Origin: Escherichia coli
GTDB taxonomy: Bacteria > Pseudomonadota > Gammaproteobacteria > Enterobacterales > Enterobacteriaceae
Strand: one strand, 5' to 3'
DNA length: 64,000 nucleotides
Assembly (NCBI RefSeq): GCF_024502345.1
Contig: NZ_JALDNN010000001.1
Shown here: positions 10,378 to 29,464 of the stretch, in pieces
How positions within the stretch are numbered: position 1 is the stretch's first letter
Layout of the letters: the number at the start of each line of letters is the position of its first letter
Notes under the pieces: generated by a model
Databases searched by the model: none
The model's input: the letters and a program-made list of their open reading frames with translations, nothing else
Told to the model about the DNA's origin: nothing
Position numbers and translations under genes: made by a program

Positions 10378-13300
10378 TTACACCTCCACGCGGCCCAGCA
10401 GATAATGATGATGCTGGTGGACATGGCTGATGATGCGGCACATATCGTTCAGCTCCGGTGGTACGTTGTTAAACTGACCTTCGCTGTCGATGTTTAACAC
10501 CCAGCTTTGGTTATTCAGACGTACTCGTACCCGGCAATCTTCCACAAGGAAGCCTGGGTTGCTGCTGTTATCAAAGTCTTGCGCCAGGCTGAAGACGGTG
10601 ATTTTGTCTTTGTATGGTTTACCGTTCCACGGACAGAACTGAGCGCAGTTGCCGCATTCGTTACAGTAAGCGTCGAGGTGCAGCGTCTGGAATCTATTCT
10701 GGAAGCCAGGGACTGCAATGGAGACGTTGGCGCGGTTCGGGCAGACATCCACGCACTTGCTGCAAACGTAGTTACATTCAAGGCAGCGAGCAGCTTCCTG
10801 CGCGACAAACGCATCACGATCGTCACTGTTCACCAGCGTGATAGAGATATCGCCTTTACGTTGATAGATTTCCGCCGGATTGACGTTGTTCCAGTATTTA
10901 TTGTTCTGGTGGGAACGGATATTTTCCCGACTAAGGATGGCATCGGTCGCCCGACGCGCGGTTCCGACAGCAGCGACAATGGAGGATGGTCCGCGCTGTA
11001 CGTCGCCGATCATAAAGACGTCAGTCAGACGAGTTTCGCCATTATGGTCGACGTCTGGCCAGCCGTTTTTGTCCAGCGGTACGCCCATCGCATTCAGGGC
11101 TTCAGTATCCTGCTGTTCACCGATGGCGGTGATCAGACTGTCTACATGCAGTGTTACTGTTTCGTTGGTTTCAACCGGACGGCGACGACCTTTCTCATCG
11201 GGTTCGCCAAGCGACATAACGCGCAAGGTTAAGGTGCCATCAGCATCGAAACATTCCGGATTATTCAGGAAACGGAACTCCACGCCGTCGTGCAACGCTT
11301 CTTCATACTCTTCGCGCCATGCGGGCATCTCTTGCAGTGAACGACGGTAAACGATCGTTGCTTTTTCTACGCCTGGAACGCGTAACGCCGCACGAGCGCA
11401 GTCCATTGCGGTGTTACCCGCCCCGACAACGACCACATGTTTGCCCAGCTTGAGCGCTGTACCCTTGTTGTATTCACGCAGGAAGGGGAGTGATTTCCAG
11501 ACATTTTGGTTGTCGCCCGCCAGTTTCACACCGCTATTTTTATCAGTGCCGGTGGCAATCAGAACATAGTGGAAGCCCTGATTTTTTAACTGTTCAACGG
11601 TCAAATCGGGTGAGCAGCCATACTCAAATTTCACGCCGTGAGCGGCAACAAAATCGATATCGTGCTGAATTAACTCTGCAGGAATACGGAACTGAGGGAT
11701 GATATTTTTCACCACGCCGCCCGCATTGGCTTCGCGTTCAAACAGCGTAACCGGATGGCCCGCTCTGGCAAGGAAGTAACCTGCAGCCAGACCCGCCGGA
11801 CCTGCACCAATCACTGCAACCGGATGGCGTGAACCAGAACCGGCTGGTTTGTGCCAGCGTTGCTTATATTCATCCCAACCTTTTTCCAGCGCGACTTTTT
11901 TCAGTTCGCGGATATTCAGTGCACTGTCGTAATCCAGGCGGGTACAGTTGTATTGGCACTGGTGATCGCAAATATGACCGGTAATGGCGGGCAGGGCGTT
12001 GCGTTGGTAGATAAGTTCCAGCGCGTCGGCATAGCGGTGTTCGCCAAGCAGACGGATGTATTCCGGAATATCTTGCTTGATCGCGCAGGCAGTAACACAG
12101 GGGGCAACGTAGCAGTCGGTCAGCGGCAGGTCTTCTGCCACTTCAATACGCTCTTCTGGCTTCCAGTGTTTCTGGGTGTATTCCATGGTTAGCGCGTCTG
12201 CTGCCAGTCTGTTCAGTCGTTCGACGTCAACATGGTCAAGTCCCCAGGCGTCGGAGCCTTCCAGCTCGCGCATGCAGGCACTTAAACGCAGATAGCCACC
12301 AGGTTTCAGCAGGTCGGTTGCCATAGTAATAGGGCGAATACCTGTATCAAAAATATCGCGGATAGTCAGCTGACTGGCACCACCGGAATAAGAAATGGGC
12401 AGTTTGCCGTCAAAGGCGCGAGAGAGAACTGCTGCAACATTGATGGAGAGCGGGAACAGCGCACGGCCTGACATATACATCTCTTCACCAGGCAGTGCGC
12501 CTTTATTGTTGATGGTGCCGAGAGTGTTAGTCAGTTTTACGCCAAAGCCGAGTGATTTTTCTTTTGCCAGTGCCATCAGGCGTTCCAGCATTTCCAGTGC
12601 TTGCGTCAGCTTGAGGTCGTGATCAAATGACTCTTCTTTTAAGCCTATGTAACCGAAACCGCAGACATCGAGGATCTCACGAACACGCGCGTACCCCAGT
12701 AAGGTCGGGTTGAGTTTCACAAAGGTGTTGAGCCCTTTTTCTTCCAGCATGTAGCGGCAAATGGCTTCGATTTCATGCGGAGGACAGCCGTGCATGGTGG
12801 AGAGGGTGACGCCCTGCACCATACTGGTGGGGATGCGAGCGGGTAAGGCTTGCAAGCTTTCGCGTTTTTCCTGCAATCCGTGGCGGGCTAAAAATGCGTC
12901 ATCCTGGAGTAATTTATTCAGCGTATCGCGATATTGCGCGAATTTCGGATGGTCAGATGCGTCCATCATATTGTCGATGAACTGTTGCATCGGCGGTTGC
13001 TTAATACCTTCAAGGTTGTAACCGACGCTCATATTAAAGATGAACGATTTACCGGAATCAGAAGGCTGGAACATCGCTTCGAGAAGGTGCAGGGCAAACC
13101 AGGCTTTGAGGTATTCATCCCAGGCTTTAAGCAGGGTAAATTCGGTAGACCATTCGGTGTTAAAGCACTCGTCTTCGGCATCGATACAGGGCTTTTCCAG
13201 CTCCAGGCGGTCAAGAATTTGGACGGTTTTTAGTTCGATGAAGCGTCCGCCAGTCAGCCAGGAAGTGACAATATTTTGCGCGAGCTGCGTGTGCGGGCCA

Positions 13301-13476
13301 GCGGCAGGGCCGACGGGAGTGGCACAGGTTTCACCGAAGACGCTAACAGTTTTACCTTTTACAGGTGAGTAAAACTGTTGCTCGGGAATACCAAAGATTG
13401 AGCGTTGTTGTTGGTATTCATCAAATATGCGCGTCAAAAGTTCCTCAAACGGAATGGGACGCATAATATCCCCCAT
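10378..13476 (-). CDS. ygfK: large Fe-S/FAD oxidoreductase (GltD-like domain fused to a dihydropyrimidine dehydrogenase-like domain)
   Basis: 1032 aa ORF; nucleotide-binding GAGPAG motif and C-terminal cysteine clusters; stop immediately precedes ssnA. Confidence 0.85.
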   Translation of the reverse strand: MGDIMRPIPFEELLTRIFDEYQQQRSIFGIPEQQFYSPVKGKTVSVFGETCATPVGPAAGPHTQLAQNIVTSWLTGGRFIELKTVQILDRLELEKPCIDAEDECFNTEWSTEFTLLKAWDEYLKAWFALHLLEAMFQPSDSGKSFIFNMSVGYNLEGIKQPPMQQFIDNMMDASDHPKFAQYRDTLNKLLQDDAFLARHGLQEKRESLQALPARIPTSMVQGVTLSTMHGCPPHEIEAICRYMLEEKGLNTFVKLNPTLLGYARVREILDVCGFGYIGLKEESFDHDLKLTQALEMLERLMALAKEKSLGFGVKLTNTLGTINNKGALPGEEMYMSGRALFPLSINVAAVLSRAFDGKLPISYSGGASQLTIRDIFDTGIRPITMATDLLKPGGYLRLSACMRELEGSDAWGLDHVDVERLNRLAADALTMEYTQKHWKPEERIEVAEDLPLTDCYVAPCVTACAIKQDIPEYIRLLGEHRYADALELIYQRNALPAITGHICDHQCQYNCTRLDYDSALNIRELKKVALEKGWDEYKQRWHKPAGSGSRHPVAVIGAGPAGLAAGYFLARAGHPVTLFEREANAGGVVKNIIPQFRIPAELIQHDIDFVAAHGVKFEYGCSPDLTVEQLKNQGFHYVLIATGTDKNSGVKLAGDNQNVWKSLPFLREYNKGTALKLGKHVVVVGAGNTAMDCARAALRVPGVEKATIVYRRSLQEMPAWREEYEEALHDGVEFRFLNNPECFDADGTLTLRVMSLGEPDEKGRRRPVETNETVTLHVDSLITAIGEQQDTEALNAMGVPLDKNGWPDVDHNGETRLTDVFMIGDVQRGPSSIVAAVGTARRATDAILSRENIRSHQNNKYWNNVNPAEIYQRKGDISITLVNSDDRDAFVAQEAARCLECNYVCSKCVDVCPNRANVSIAVPGFQNRFQTLHLDAYCNECGNCAQFCPWNGKPYKDKITVFSLAQDFDNSSNPGFLVEDCRVRVRLNNQSWVLNIDSEGQFNNVPPELNDMCRIISHVHQHHHYLLGRVEV

Positions 13477-13558
13477 AACCCTCTCCTTAGCTTATACAGA
13501 TATCATTGAGTGACCGGTGTTGAGAAATCCGGTGGTTTAGGGGGATAGAGCAACAATC

Positions 13559-13574
13559 GCACCACTCTTGCCAG
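13559..13574 (-). promoter_or_regulatory. candidate sigma-54 (-24/-12) promoter upstream of ygfK
   Basis: minus-strand sequence CTGGCAAGAGTGGTGC: GG and GC dinucleotides at the canonical 10-nt spacing; about 85 bp upstream of the ygfK start. Confidence 0.3.
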
Positions 13575-13797
13575 GTTTGGCGGGAAATATAAAAAAATGT
13601 GAGGCGGCTCGAAACTTAAGGGCTTTTTGTGAATGAACTCACAGGTGCTAAATGAGAATTAAAATCACTCCTGAAAATTATTATTGCCAGCCCATTTATC
13701 ACTTTTTCTCTTTTCTCAAAATCAGTGATTCCTTATCATTATGATAAAGAGTGCCGGAAGGATTAAATATTTGAACGCAATCGTTTAACTACGTTTT

Positions 13798-14376
13798 CTA
13801 AATTTCTGTATACCTTTTCTTCGCTGTAATAAAGTCGTCCGGAGTATCAATATCTAAAATTATTTCTGCATTTTCTATTTCGACGGAATAATGATCTCCC
13901 ATAAGGAGTGCCTGACGCATATTGGTGACATTGGGTCGCTGGATTGCCTGCATCAGGCATGGTTTTGACACTAAAATCGGATGGCCGGGGATGCCATTAT
14001 GGAGTGGCAGTATTGCGCCATCATTTCGTAACGACCAGATTTTTCTAAAAATATCGATGGTGAGGGTTGGCATGTCACCGTGGGTGAGAAAACAATGTTC
14101 TGTTTGCACCGCGGGTACTGCGGCCTTTACTGATGTTAGTAAACCCTGCGCATAATCTGGGTTGTGGATAATAGTGATATTGCTCTGGTTCGCATAACGT
14201 TCGTGCAGTTCATTACCACGATAGCCGGTGACTAAAATAATTCGGCTACAAAACTGCAACGCATTTTTGATACTTGTATCAAGAATTGTTCCCTGTTGCC
14301 AGGGTAACATCATTTTCCATTGCCCCATTCTTGATGATAATCCGGCAGCGGTAATTATACAGTCGATGGCTGACAT
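13798..14376 (-). CDS. mocA: molybdenum cofactor cytidylyltransferase
   Basis: 192 aa ORF; MobA-like nucleotidyltransferase N-terminus (IITAAGLSSRMG). Confidence 0.8.
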   Translation of the reverse strand: MSAIDCIITAAGLSSRMGQWKMMLPWQQGTILDTSIKNALQFCSRIILVTGYRGNELHERYANQSNITIIHNPDYAQGLLTSVKAAVPAVQTEHCFLTHGDMPTLTIDIFRKIWSLRNDGAILPLHNGIPGHPILVSKPCLMQAIQRPNVTNMRQALLMGDHYSVEIENAEIILDIDTPDDFITAKKRYTEI

Positions 14377-14478
14377 AGTGGTTCCATTATTTATAGGGGC
14401 TAATAACGCCTGATAATTGCGTTACTTCCTGATGCATTAAGTTGGGGATAATTTATCCCAGAGAGGTCATAAAGACTC

Positions 14479-20649: not shown

Positions 20650-21846
20650 TTAAGGTGCTACAGCGTGTTTGCCTTCCCAGACAACTTCGCGGTAGTGCTT
20701 CACGTCGGTGTCGCCTTCAGTGCTGATAACCAGCACTACGGCATCTTTGTTCAGCGCCAGTTTTTCCATCAGGCTTTGACGTTGCGGGTGATAATGAACC
20801 GCCGCGAGAACGCCCAAACCGACAGCGCCGGATTCACCGGAGATGATGCGCGGGTCGTTGCCGTACGGATTACCCAGCACGCGCATACCTAATGCGGCAA
20901 CGCTGTCCTGGCAGGAGATGAATTGGGTGGCGCAGTTACGTAGGATTTCCCAGCCCAGCGGGTTAGGTTCGCCACAGGCCAGGCCCGCCATGATGGTGGC
21001 CATATCACCGCCAACGTTGACGATGTCGCCTTTGACGCCGGAGCGATAAATACAGTCAGCTTTGTCAGGTTCAACAATAATGCTATGCAGATTTTGCGGG
21101 CTGTAGACGTCGACCAGATAACCCAGCACACCACCGGCCATTGCACCGACACCAGCTTGCAGCAGAACGTGCGTCGGGGTTACGCCCATTTCACGCATTT
21201 GCTCGACGGCTTCATCTGCCAGGGTTGCGTAGCCTTGCATGATCCAGGATGGGATTTTGGTGTAACCTTCCCATGCCGTGTCCTGTACTACTTCCCAGCC
21301 GTGCTGCTGCGCGTGTTGCATGGTCAGGCGAACGGTATCGTCATAGTTCATATCCGTGACGATGCACTCGGCACCGAGGTTCAGAATGGCGTCAACGCGT
21401 TCCTGAGCAGAACCTTTCGGCATGTAAATCACCGCATTCTGTCCGAGTTGCTGCGCTGCCCACGCCACACCGCGCCCGTGGTTGCCGTCGGTGGTGGTGG
21501 CGAAAGTCATTTTTTCGCCGATGGCATTTTTCAGGTGCTCAAATGACAGCGTTTCGATATCAAGATGATATTTTTCACACAATAATTGAGCGATAGCGTA
21601 CGCACCGCCGAGCATTTTGAAGGCGTTCAGACCGAATCGTTTTGATTCGTCTTTGACAAGAATTTTCTTCACACCAAAAAGGTTTGCGAGATCGTCCAGC
21701 GCACAAAGCGGTGTTGGGCGATAACCAGCTATTTTCTGGTGGAACTGGCGCGCCAGTTTGGCCTGGCTTTGCGAAAAGAGCGGTGATGTTTCGCCGTTGA
21801 AAAATTTGTTATCGGCGATATCAATCTTCAATGAGAAAACGGACAT
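20650..21846 (-). CDS. dpaL: 2,3-diaminopropionate ammonia-lyase (PLP-dependent)
   Basis: 398 aa ORF; PLP fold-type II features; synonym ygeX. Confidence 0.85.
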   Translation of the reverse strand: MSVFSLKIDIADNKFFNGETSPLFSQSQAKLARQFHQKIAGYRPTPLCALDDLANLFGVKKILVKDESKRFGLNAFKMLGGAYAIAQLLCEKYHLDIETLSFEHLKNAIGEKMTFATTTDGNHGRGVAWAAQQLGQNAVIYMPKGSAQERVDAILNLGAECIVTDMNYDDTVRLTMQHAQQHGWEVVQDTAWEGYTKIPSWIMQGYATLADEAVEQMREMGVTPTHVLLQAGVGAMAGGVLGYLVDVYSPQNLHSIIVEPDKADCIYRSGVKGDIVNVGGDMATIMAGLACGEPNPLGWEILRNCATQFISCQDSVAALGMRVLGNPYGNDPRIISGESGAVGLGVLAAVHYHPQRQSLMEKLALNKDAVVLVISTEGDTDVKHYREVVWEGKHAVAP

Positions 21847-23200: not shown

Positions 23201-23569
23201 GAATTATCCGCGCGGCTGCAAAAGACTAATTTGACGGATAATGTGTGGGGTTGATCACAAATTGATGCCAGCTTCTGGTTGTTTGTAAAATACGAAAACG
23301 TTTGGCTTTTTTTATCGCGTTATTTATTTGCTGCTAAGTATCAGAAATAAGATAAAGGGGCAGGCTATCTCTCTTCAGTTTGATAAACTCACCGCCGTAA
23401 TTCTCATATTGATATAGAAATGTGATATCTCTTCCATAATTTCATTAGAAAATGATAAAAATCTTATGTTTTTATCAAAGCCAATTTCGCCTGAGTTAAT
23501 ATCATCATGATCTGTGAACCATCAACGTCTTCAATGATCGACTTTTAAGTAAGTCTGGAAGGTAAAGCT

Positions 23570-25348
23570 ATGGAGCTTGCTACTACGCAGTCAGTATTGA
23601 TGCAAATTCAACCGACAATTCAGCGTTTTGCCAGAATGCTTGCCAGCGTTTTGCAGCTTGAGGTTGAGATCGTTGATGAAAACTTGTGTCGCGTCGCCGG
23701 AACGGGCGCGTATGGGAAGTTTCTTGGTCGCCAGTTGAGCGGCAACTCACGCCTGCTCCGCCACGTCCTGGAAACGAAAACTGAAAAAGTTGTGACACAG
23801 TCTCGCTTCGATCCCCTTTGCGAAGGTTGCGATAGTAAAGAAAATTGCCGCGAAAAAGCATTTCTGGGTACGCCTGTCATTTTACAGGATCGTTGTGTTG
23901 GGGTGATAAGTTTGATTGCCGTTACCCACGAGCAACAAGAGCATATCAGTGATAATTTACGCGAATTTTCTGATTATGTTCGCCATATATCCACCATTTT
24001 TGTTTCGAAACTTCTGGAGGATCAGGGGCCAGGAGATAACATCAGTAAAATATTCGCGACCATGATCGATAATATGGATCAGGGCGTATTAGTTGTTGAT
24101 GATGAAAGTCGGGTTCAGTTTGTTAATCAGACTGCCTTAAAAACACTTGGTGTTGTACAAAATAATATTATTGGGAAACCTATCCGTTTCAGACCATTAA
24201 CATTTGAGAGTAATTTTACTCATGGACATATGCAGCATATTGTTTCGTGGGACGATAAAAGTGAATTAATCATTGGTCAATTGCATAACATTCAGGGCCG
24301 ACAATTATTTTTAATGGCATTTCACCAATCGCATACCAGTTTTTCTGTAGCAAATGCACCTGATGAACCACATATTGAACAATTGGTTGGCGAGTGCCGT
24401 GTTATGCGGCAATTAAAACGACTCATTAGCCGTATTGCACCCAGCCCATCCAGCGTTATGGTGGTTGGTGAAAGTGGCACGGGTAAAGAAGTCGTCGCCC
24501 GAGCAATCCATAAGTTGAGCGGAAGACGGAATAAACCCTTTATTGCTATCAACTGTGCCGCGATTCCGGAGCAGCTTCTGGAAAGCGAACTGTTCGGTTA
24601 TGTTAAAGGCGCATTTACTGGCGCTTCTGCCAACGGTAAAACAGGGTTGATTCAGGCGGCGAATACGGGCACGCTGTTTCTCGATGAAATAGGTGATATG
24701 CCATTAATGTTGCAGGCTAAATTACTGCGCGCTATTGAGGCGCGTGAAATTCTGCCGATTGGTGCCAGTAGCCCAATACAAGTCGACATTCGCATCATTT
24801 CTGCAACTAATCAGAATTTGGCCCAGTTCATTGCCGAAGGTAAATTCCGCGAAGATCTCTTCTACCGACTTAATGTTATCCCGATAACTCTGCCACCGCT
24901 GCGTGAACGTCAGGAAGATATTGAACTATTGGTGCATTACTTTTTACATCTGCATACCCGTCGTCTGGGATCGGTTTATCCTGGCATTGCTCCCGATGTC
25001 GTCGAAATATTGCGTAAGCATCGTTGGCCCGGAAACCTGCGCGAGTTAAGCAATTTGATGGAATATCTGGTTAACGTAGTTCCTTCAGGTGAAGTTATCG
25101 ACAGCACGCTATTGCCGCCAAATCTGCTGAATAATGGCACAACGGAGCAAAGTGATGTAACAGAGGTCAGTGAGGCGCACCTGTCACTCGATGATGCGGG
25201 CGGCACGGCGCTGGAGGAGATGGAAAAGCAAATGATCCGCGAGGCGCTTTCACGTCATAACAGCAAGAAGCAAGTTGCTGATGAACTGGGCATCGGCATT
25301 GCTACGCTCTATCGCAAGATTAAGAAATATGAGTTGTTAAACACATAA
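23570..25348 (+). CDS. ygeV: sigma-54-dependent transcriptional activator (bacterial enhancer-binding protein)
   Basis: 592 aa ORF; AAA+ sigma-54 interaction domain with Walker A (GESGTGKE) and GAFTGA motif; C-terminal Fis-type HTH. Confidence 0.85.
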   Translation: MELATTQSVLMQIQPTIQRFARMLASVLQLEVEIVDENLCRVAGTGAYGKFLGRQLSGNSRLLRHVLETKTEKVVTQSRFDPLCEGCDSKENCREKAFLGTPVILQDRCVGVISLIAVTHEQQEHISDNLREFSDYVRHISTIFVSKLLEDQGPGDNISKIFATMIDNMDQGVLVVDDESRVQFVNQTALKTLGVVQNNIIGKPIRFRPLTFESNFTHGHMQHIVSWDDKSELIIGQLHNIQGRQLFLMAFHQSHTSFSVANAPDEPHIEQLVGECRVMRQLKRLISRIAPSPSSVMVVGESGTGKEVVARAIHKLSGRRNKPFIAINCAAIPEQLLESELFGYVKGAFTGASANGKTGLIQAANTGTLFLDEIGDMPLMLQAKLLRAIEAREILPIGASSPIQVDIRIISATNQNLAQFIAEGKFREDLFYRLNVIPITLPPLRERQEDIELLVHYFLHLHTRRLGSVYPGIAPDVVEILRKHRWPGNLRELSNLMEYLVNVVPSGEVIDSTLLPPNLLNNGTTEQSDVTEVSEAHLSLDDAGGTALEEMEKQMIREALSRHNSKKQVADELGIGIATLYRKIKKYELLNT

Positions 25349-29122: not shown

Positions 29123-29464
29123 AAACGACGATAAGCGTTAGGGGAGGTAGGAAGTGTGATGACGTTAAAAAAACACAGATATGATACGAAACAGGACTCT
29201 GAATAGGGGCAGTGATACGTATCAATATGAGTGGCGATAAAATCAATGTGATAAATTGGGATTATTACGCATCAGGATGGGAAATAGGGTAAAAAGTCAG
29301 GAACTTCGATACCTCTACAGCGAATATTTTGCTGATGATACTTCCCTTTGCCAAATGAAATTAACCTCTTTCTCTATTACCACGTTTTTCCAGAAGCAAG
29401 AGATTGGGTATCAAGAGGCTGGCTGCTATGATAAGGCGTCTTGTTTTTTAAGCGAGGAAAGATT

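Follow-up and report, generated by a model that had tools for sequence, protein, structure and literature searches.

How the ygfK-ssnA-ygfM-xdhD operon of Escherichia coli is switched on is a question of practical interest, as its products carry out the first steps of a recently described reductive degradation of uric acid by E. coli and other gut anaerobes, a pathway that bears on gout and hyperuricaemia and is already being engineered into probiotics. YgfK, the isoxanthine-reducing flavoenzyme of this pathway, carries Fe-S clusters. A 64,000-nucleotide stretch of E. coli DNA (hereafter the window) contains a perfect 15-bp palindrome between mocA and ygfK, for which an earlier note on the sequence had proposed a role as the operator of a dimeric regulator. 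The question raised by this locus is whether the palindrome is a regulatory site and, if so, which promoter and which protein it serves. The palindrome proves to be a real regulatory site, deeply conserved, with the sigma-54 promoter of ygfK approximately 200 bp downstream of it. Further, with a probability of roughly 0.8, we infer that it is the main upstream activating sequence at this promoter for YgeV, a predicted enhancer-binding protein encoded in the same locus.

Position and symmetry of the palindrome

The window matches E. coli DNA annotated with mocA and ygfK (99.4% identity by BLAST) and runs in the reverse orientation of K-12. It reads TTATCATTATGATAA at 13733..13747, where the earlier note had placed a perfect palindrome, with the symmetry arranged as 7-1-7 (the site in gene orientation is cTTTATCATAATGATAAGG; Table 1). 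The gene coordinates bear out the position described for it, some 50 bp past the end of mocA and 260 bp short of ygfK, as the palindrome lies 51 bp beyond the mocA stop and approximately 257–271 bp before the ygfK ATG on the minus strand. A second small palindrome had also been reported nearby, and this sequence, AATCAGTGATT, is indeed present, though one base away from the coordinates given for it (13720..13730 rather than 13721..13731).

Perfect symmetry of this kind is common in the window. Five perfect 7-1-7 palindromes occur in the 64 kb, which is about the chance level, and each spacer length from 0 to 5 yields between three and eight perfect palindromes. As 7-1-7 symmetry is not above chance, the case for a function rests on conservation instead. 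The divergent promoter region between mocA and yqeC contains another perfect 7-1-7 palindrome, GGGATAATTTATCCC (14445..14459), which served as a negative control. Already in cryptic Escherichia and Citrobacter it differs at one to three positions, and in more distant relatives it is missing; judged from these sequences, it is probably not a conserved operator.

Table 1 Features of the window that bear on the palindrome upstream of ygfK
Feature	Position	Strand	Remarks
ygfK	10378..13476	-	First gene of the regulated operon
Sigma-54 promoter GTGGTGCGATTGTTGCT of ygfK-ssnA-ygfM-xdhD	13549..13565	-	-24 GG, -12 GC; ChIP-seq (PMC4591121) and conservation
CRP-type core TGTGAATGAACTCACA	13628..13643		Perfect TGTGA-N6-TCACA; between palindrome and sigma-54 promoter
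Conserved block GAGTGATTTTAATTCTCATT (gene orientation)	13651..13670	-	Between activator site and promoter
Conserved element TTTTGAGAAA (gene orientation)	13712..13721	-	Adjoins AATCAGTGATT
Small palindrome AATCAGTGATT	13720..13730		Between palindrome and TTTTGAGAAA element
Proposed main activator site (UAS)	13733..13747	-	Conservation, spacing
Conserved core TATCA-N3-TGATA within TTATCATTATGATAA	13734..13746	-	Core match upstream of ygfK; 0 mismatches
mocA	13798..14376	-	
Core match TATCAAGATGATA	21558..21570		Perfect core within ygeX, about 280 nt from the start of the gene
Core match TATCAATATGAGA	23402..23414	-	1 mismatch; ygeW-ygeV intergenic, 214 bp upstream of ygeW sigma-54 promoter CTGGCACACTTATTGTT
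Core match TATCATCATGATC	23500..23512		1 mismatch; ygeW-ygeV intergenic, 57 bp before ygeV ATG
ygeV	23570..25348	+	PAS, Sigma54_activat, AAA_lid_14 and HTH_8 domains; proposed factor for the palindrome
Core match TATCACATTGATT	29241..29253	-	1 mismatch; 132 bp upstream of xdhA sigma-54 promoter
Core matches elsewhere	57352 and 60960		1 mismatch each; consistent with chance

Conservation across ygfK orthologs

A scan of a genome collection with the N-terminus of YgfK yielded 80 orthologous loci, including those of Escherichia, Citrobacter, Klebsiella, Raoultella, Kluyvera, Edwardsiella, Serratia, Morganella, Aeromonas, Photobacterium and some beta-proteobacteria. The core TATCA-N3-TGATA was perfect in 68 of the 81 ygfK upstream regions, whereas shuffled sequences gave 0.035, and the 13-bp core was retained in some 25 named genera of Gammaproteobacteria as well as in beta-proteobacterial MAGs. 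The check that the earlier note had suggested, a comparison of orthologous intergenic regions, therefore revealed strong conservation in relatives, not loss, and supports its proposal of an operator for a dimeric regulator. The palindrome hardly changes among E. coli variants, cryptic Escherichia and Citrobacter, a single difference at its outermost base in E. whittamii excepted, whereas the flank on its mocA side is variable. Degenerate sites with two mismatches precede the ygfK homologs of three loci (L058, L072 and L076), and no site was found upstream of ygfK in two others (L073 and L074). The notion that the palindrome is a functionless chance feature of AT-rich intergenic DNA would be in keeping with the number of 7-1-7 palindromes in the window and with the decay of its neighbour GGGATAATTTATCCC in close relatives, but it is practically eliminated by the frequency of perfect cores, by their fixed spacing from the promoter (see below) and by the invariance of the site in E. 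coli next to a flank that varies.

The extent of the conserved unit was narrower than the symmetry suggests. In a position profile of 64 distinct sites, selected for no more than one mismatch to the core, the half-sites were near-invariant, the spacer followed the pattern W-W-N, the preceding T was mostly kept and the following base was free. This profile defines the conserved unit as tTATCA-WWN-TGATA, so that the symmetric site itself is conserved but over 13–14 bp and not all of the 15 bp first taken as the operator; full 15-bp symmetry is confined to Escherichia, Citrobacter and Atlantibacter.

This distribution of conserved positions also bears on the identity of the bound factor. Operator consensuses (Fur, FNR, CRP, IHF, ArcA, PurR, NtrC, Zur, ModE, Nac, DnaA, H-NS, NagC/Mlc, ArgR and LexA) were scored against the palindrome, and only Fur rose above shuffled sequences. 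The E. coli site matches 13 of the 19 positions of the 19-bp Fur consensus, a score reached by 1% of shuffles of the 51-bp region, and it resembles the Fur box GATAATGATAATCATTATC in being AT-rich and in its GATAA/TTATC hexamers. A weak Fur box, or the operator of an AT-rich global regulator, would tie the operon of an Fe-S enzyme to iron status, and the Fe-S clusters of YgfK fit such a role. However, the Fur score falls to 9–12 of 19 in most orthologs while TATCA-N3-TGATA stays perfect, the half-sites are inverted relative to the 7-1-7 arrangement of Fur (TGATAAT-N-ATTATCA), and the core-flanking positions that a Fur box requires are not conserved. A text search of the literature returned no papers linking ygfK to Fur binding. 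Control through Fur or a similar global regulator is accordingly very improbable.

The element was retained with either of two upstream neighbours, a same-strand mocA or a divergent short yqeB, and thus belongs to the ygfK promoter and not to mocA. The same observation weighs against a role in RNA, namely a hairpin that ends or stabilises the mocA transcript. The palindrome does lie 51 bp past the mocA stop, and its RNA can fold into a stem of 9 bp around a UAA loop, but the stem is AT-rich with no U-run directly after it, its fold z-score is -1.8 and a terminator scan was negative at the palindrome. Furthermore, the element keeps a fixed distance from the ygfK promoter in many species that have no mocA upstream, and its spacer is free to vary while the half-sites are fixed, with no compensatory changes. 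An mRNA hairpin is consequently very improbable as well.

An expansion of the site was observed in E. coli strain 504838 (L088), where a tandem TGATAA-TGATAA-TGATAA, aligned to 13747..13752, adjoins the palindrome on the mocA side and supplies additional half-sites.

A sigma-54 promoter and its upstream elements

The palindrome had been described as lying in an AT-rich promoter region. It does lie in a promoter region, although the promoter that it serves is a sigma-54 promoter and not a generic AT-rich one. According to a sigma-54 ChIP-seq study (Bonocora et al. 2015; PMC4591121), the site GTGGTGCGATTGTTGCT lies 62 nt upstream of ygfK in E. coli, and further sigma-54 sites are located upstream of xdhA, ygeW and ygfT. 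As a simple sigma-54 consensus scan of the window proved too unspecific, these published sites were used instead. Nearly all of the 80 ortholog loci carry a sigma-54 promoter of the form TGGnnnGAWTGTTGCT about 75–145 bp before the start codon. From the position of the promoter in the window, transcription would begin near 13538, with the palindrome centred near -202. The distance from the start of the core downstream to the TGG of the promoter falls into two modes, 182–183 bp in 32 loci and 161–162 bp in 27 loci, with the window at 182 bp; the modes are 21 bp apart, equivalent to about two helical turns.

Classical sites for enhancer-binding proteins lie approximately 100–200 bp upstream of a -24/-12 promoter, often in multiple copies on one face of the helix, and act through DNA looping. 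NtrC binds TGCACC-N5-GGTGCA and NifA binds TGT-N10-ACA. The palindrome resembles the sites of NtrC at glnAp2, NifA, PspF, NorR and ZraR in its dyad symmetry, and these proteins share with YgeV a C-terminal Fis-type helix-turn-helix. In contrast to the NtrC and NifA sites, it has another sequence and more closely set half-sites (5-3-5), and its second site consists of one half only. Several further hallmarks of an upstream activating sequence were found at ygfK: a -24/-12 promoter downstream on the same strand, a site placed roughly 80–250 bp upstream of it, constrained spacing, an extra half-site in addition to dyad symmetry, and a gene for an HTH_8 enhancer-binding protein nearby.

The extra half-site, TGAGA (13714..13718), lies within the conserved TTTTGAGAAA element, 20 bp or about two helical turns downstream of the right half of the palindrome, and a TGAKA half-site occurs at +28/+29 from the core start in 66 of 76 loci. 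The TTTTGAGAAA element is probably a second, half-symmetric activator site. The small palindrome AATCAGTGATT, which, unlike the adjacent TTTTGAGAAA, is not kept as a palindrome beyond Escherichia, is probably an incidental spacer between the two conserved elements. Closer to the promoter, the block GAGTGATTTTAATTCTCATT was compared by eye with the IHF consensus and did not resemble it convincingly. The CRP-type core, which ygfK orthologs also retain, has its centre approximately 97.5 bp before the sigma-54 start. Glucose has been reported to slow uric-acid degradation, and a Crp site has been described in the ygeV-ygeW intergenic region; the CRP-type core may explain glucose repression of the ygfK operon.

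Together with a further conserved block, TTTTGAGAAAT, the GAGTGATTTTAATTCTCATT block and the CRP-type site suggest that several factors probably act upstream of ygfK. These blocks give some weight to the alternative that the palindrome is the conserved operator of another regulator at the ygfK sigma-54 promoter, either a repressor or a global factor, and that YgeV binds elsewhere. The evidence that bears on this alternative comes from the recurrence of the motif and from the genes with which it travels.

Recurrence of the motif at co-regulated promoters

A search with TCATNATGA as the motif gave only three matches in the window, one of them inside ygeR, and 12 of 100 shuffles did no worse; it was replaced by the phylogenetically derived core TATCA-N3-TGATA. 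With up to one mismatch, this core occurs seven times in the window versus 1.48 expected, and without mismatches twice versus 0.07 expected. Four of the seven matches precede sigma-54 promoters of this locus that were mapped by ChIP-seq, namely those of ygfK, ygeW (two matches) and xdhA; a fifth falls within ygeX and the remaining two lie elsewhere (Table 1). The site upstream of xdhA repeats the layout seen at ygfK, with a further TGATA half-site at +29. The copy within ygeX has no obvious promoter to serve, and the ygeX genes of the three ortholog clusters studied lack it; either it is coincidental or it may represent an internal site peculiar to E. coli.

Beyond the window, TATCAATATGAGA also occurs in K-12 between the divergent genes ygfT and uacT (L002:1161..1173), where the 13-mer plus the next A, TATCAATATGAGAA, is identical to the ygeW site. 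This copy is 123 bp upstream of a promoter-like sequence, TGGCAC-N5-GAGCA (L002:1284), that faces uacT and that was not found listed for uacT among the sigma-54 ChIP sites consulted (PMC4591121). A point against a common activator is that the spacings elsewhere in E. coli (123, 132 and 214 bp) do not share one helical phase with the 182 bp at ygfK. No copies of the motif were present in 22 kb of unrelated K-12 DNA.

The operons that carry the motif correspond to the published YgeV iModulon (PMC10602906; PMC12132413). No copy was found in the K-12 regions of ybiY, a listed member of the iModulon, or aegA, a gene linked to uric-acid use, and these are therefore probably not direct targets, or are targets via diverged sites. 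The presence of the motif upstream of xdhA, ygeW and ygfT/uacT leads us to propose that the whole purine and uric-acid catabolic locus is under one activator.

Two minor features were observed near these sites. Upstream of xdhA, TTGATACGTATCAC (29212..29225, minus strand) agrees with the FNR consensus TTGAT-N4-ATCAA in all but one of 10 positions and overlaps the +29 TGATA half-site of the activator site, making anaerobic control at xdhA possible. Between ygeW and ygeV, the repeat TGATAAAAA-N7-TTTTTATCA (23453..23477) faces outward and thus presents the same TGATA/TATCA half-sites in the opposite arrangement.

YgeV and its relatives

YgeV contains a PAS domain, a sigma-54-interaction AAA+ domain with its AAA lid and a Fis-type HTH_8 domain, an architecture that identifies it as a bacterial enhancer-binding protein, and it is the sole such protein identified in the locus. 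The literature treats it as a predicted sigma-54 activator to which an iModulon has been assigned on statistical grounds, and it has been renamed IsrR for an effect on EHEC virulence. No description of an E. coli YgeV binding site or of the palindrome was found in the searchable literature, and a literature search for ChIP or footprint data on YgeV likewise found none.

Orthologs of YgeV were sought among representatives clustered at 50% identity, as a word-indexed search returned near-identical E. coli proteins only. Three orthologs, with 53, 51 and 45% identity, were located in compact clusters (L089, L090 and L092) in which the motif occurs upstream of the ygeW and ygfK homologs and, in two of the three, upstream of xdh. 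In L090, the sites upstream of ygeW and xdh have TCTCA as their left half, while the site upstream of the ygfK homolog reads TCTCA-N3-TGAGA, and the half-site common to all three points to a single protein that recognises them. The clusters conserve no further DNA-binding regulator. The helix-turn-helix segment LGIGIATLYRKIKKY is nearly invariant among the YgeV orthologs, and its core, LGIGIATLYRK, recurs in many full-length relatives with 35–41% identity.

The association extends to more distant relatives. On a Firmicute-type contig, the gene for a YgeV homolog with 41% identity (P0138) is followed by three perfect TATCA-N3-TGATA sites, then by TTGGCACCGTAATTGCA, and then by dpaL, a peptidase gene and ridA. 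In contrast, the locus of another relative (P0130; L094) holds neither the motif nor the pathway genes, indicating that not all 40%-identical relatives belong to the regulon.

The motif thus travels with YgeV-family regulators in both Proteobacteria and Firmicutes, recurs at the promoters of the YgeV iModulon, lies at ygfK at a distance typical of enhancer-binding protein sites, and shows a common TCTCA variant across the L090 sites in clusters that lack any other conserved DNA-binding regulator. These observations argue against an operator for a different regulator, which we regard as unlikely despite the other conserved blocks upstream of ygfK, and favour YgeV as the protein that acts at the palindrome.

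A model for activation of the ygfK operon

The arrangement of the sites, read in the light of what is established for enhancer-binding proteins, suggests how YgeV may act on this promoter. The half-sites TTATCA and TGATAA would be contacted by a dimer of YgeV, whose C-terminal Fis-type helix-turn-helix would do the binding. The TGAGA half-site, 20 bp downstream and on the same face of the helix, would then help further subunits to join and form the active AAA+ ring. Looping of the DNA over about 175 bp, possibly aided by CRP at about -97, would bring the ring into contact with the closed complex of sigma-54 RNA polymerase at the promoter (13549..13565), where ATP would be used to open it. CRP at this position may in addition confer catabolite control, which would be consistent with the slower degradation of uric acid in the presence of glucose and with the Crp site between ygeV and ygeW.

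A possible recognition code shared with the Clostridium regulator DioR

A counterpart of this system has been predicted in Firmicutes, where the sigma-54 activator of a homologous Clostridium cluster is termed DioR (Nie et al. 2019, BMC Genomics; PMC6615313, supplementary table). The predicted DioR sites include ATTTATCAAAGTGATAAGT, ATTTATCATAATGATAAGG and TATTATCATTTTGATAATA, of which ATTTATCATAATGATAAGG lies upstream of ygeW-ygfK-ssnA-ygeY in C. botulinum, and C. difficile and C. ljungdahlii carry the variant TTCTCA-N3-TGAGAA (PMC6615313). Over a run of 17 bases the E. coli site and this C. botulinum prediction are identical. Both systems share the motif (A)TTATCA-N3-TGATAA with its TTCTCA/TGAGAA variant, its placement upstream of sigma-54 promoters, often in two or three copies, and a gene set comprising ygeW-ygfK-ssnA-ygeY, dpaL/ygeX, yqeC-ygfJ-yqeB and xdhABC. 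The sites reported here agree with the DioR consensus and lie at homologous genes (ygfK, ygeW, xdhA and ygfT/uacT in E. coli, and those of L089, L090 and L092). They differ in that the DioR sites are computational predictions in Firmicutes for a regulon whose function is listed as unknown (PMC6615313), and that study does not contain the E. coli site, the two-mode spacing, the extra TGAKA half-site or the link to YgeV. From the shared architecture, the shared regulon and one sampled homolog locus, we infer that YgeV and DioR may be orthologous.

The motif co-occurs with YgeV-family regulators in two phyla (Proteobacteria and Firmicutes). On a broader reading, the palindrome would be the DNA target of YgeV (IsrR), and a single module would comprise the regulator, its operator, the sigma-54 promoters and the genes of the reductive uric-acid pathway. 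Its recognition code, TTATCA-N3-TGATAA with a T(A/C)TCA switch, would then have been retained in both phyla. We lean slightly towards this broader reading, and horizontal transfer of the module as a unit is one possible explanation of the shared code.

The sigma-54 promoter of ygfK, the co-expression of these operons and the prediction of the motif for the Clostridium counterpart are already known, and the site of an enhancer-binding protein is a textbook element; given that element type and the earlier prediction, the present assignment is useful to the specialist and not surprising. Its main value lies in the access it offers to the control of reductive uric-acid breakdown in gut bacteria and to the actual YgeV/IsrR regulon. 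A defined site would allow a direct test of control by YgeV and the search for its regulon by motif, as well as reporters for the YgeV ligand and promoter edits that keep or remove native control. If the broader reading holds, scanning gut bacteria for the motif would be enough to define the YgeV regulon there, and would reveal whether YgeV acts directly on the EHEC virulence genes that it is reported to affect.

In its second base, the half-site varies between A and C by lineage (TATCA or TCTCA), both within Proteobacteria, where L090 has the C form, and within Clostridia (PMC6615313, supplement). This A/C switch could be matched with changes in the recognition helix to obtain a recognition code.
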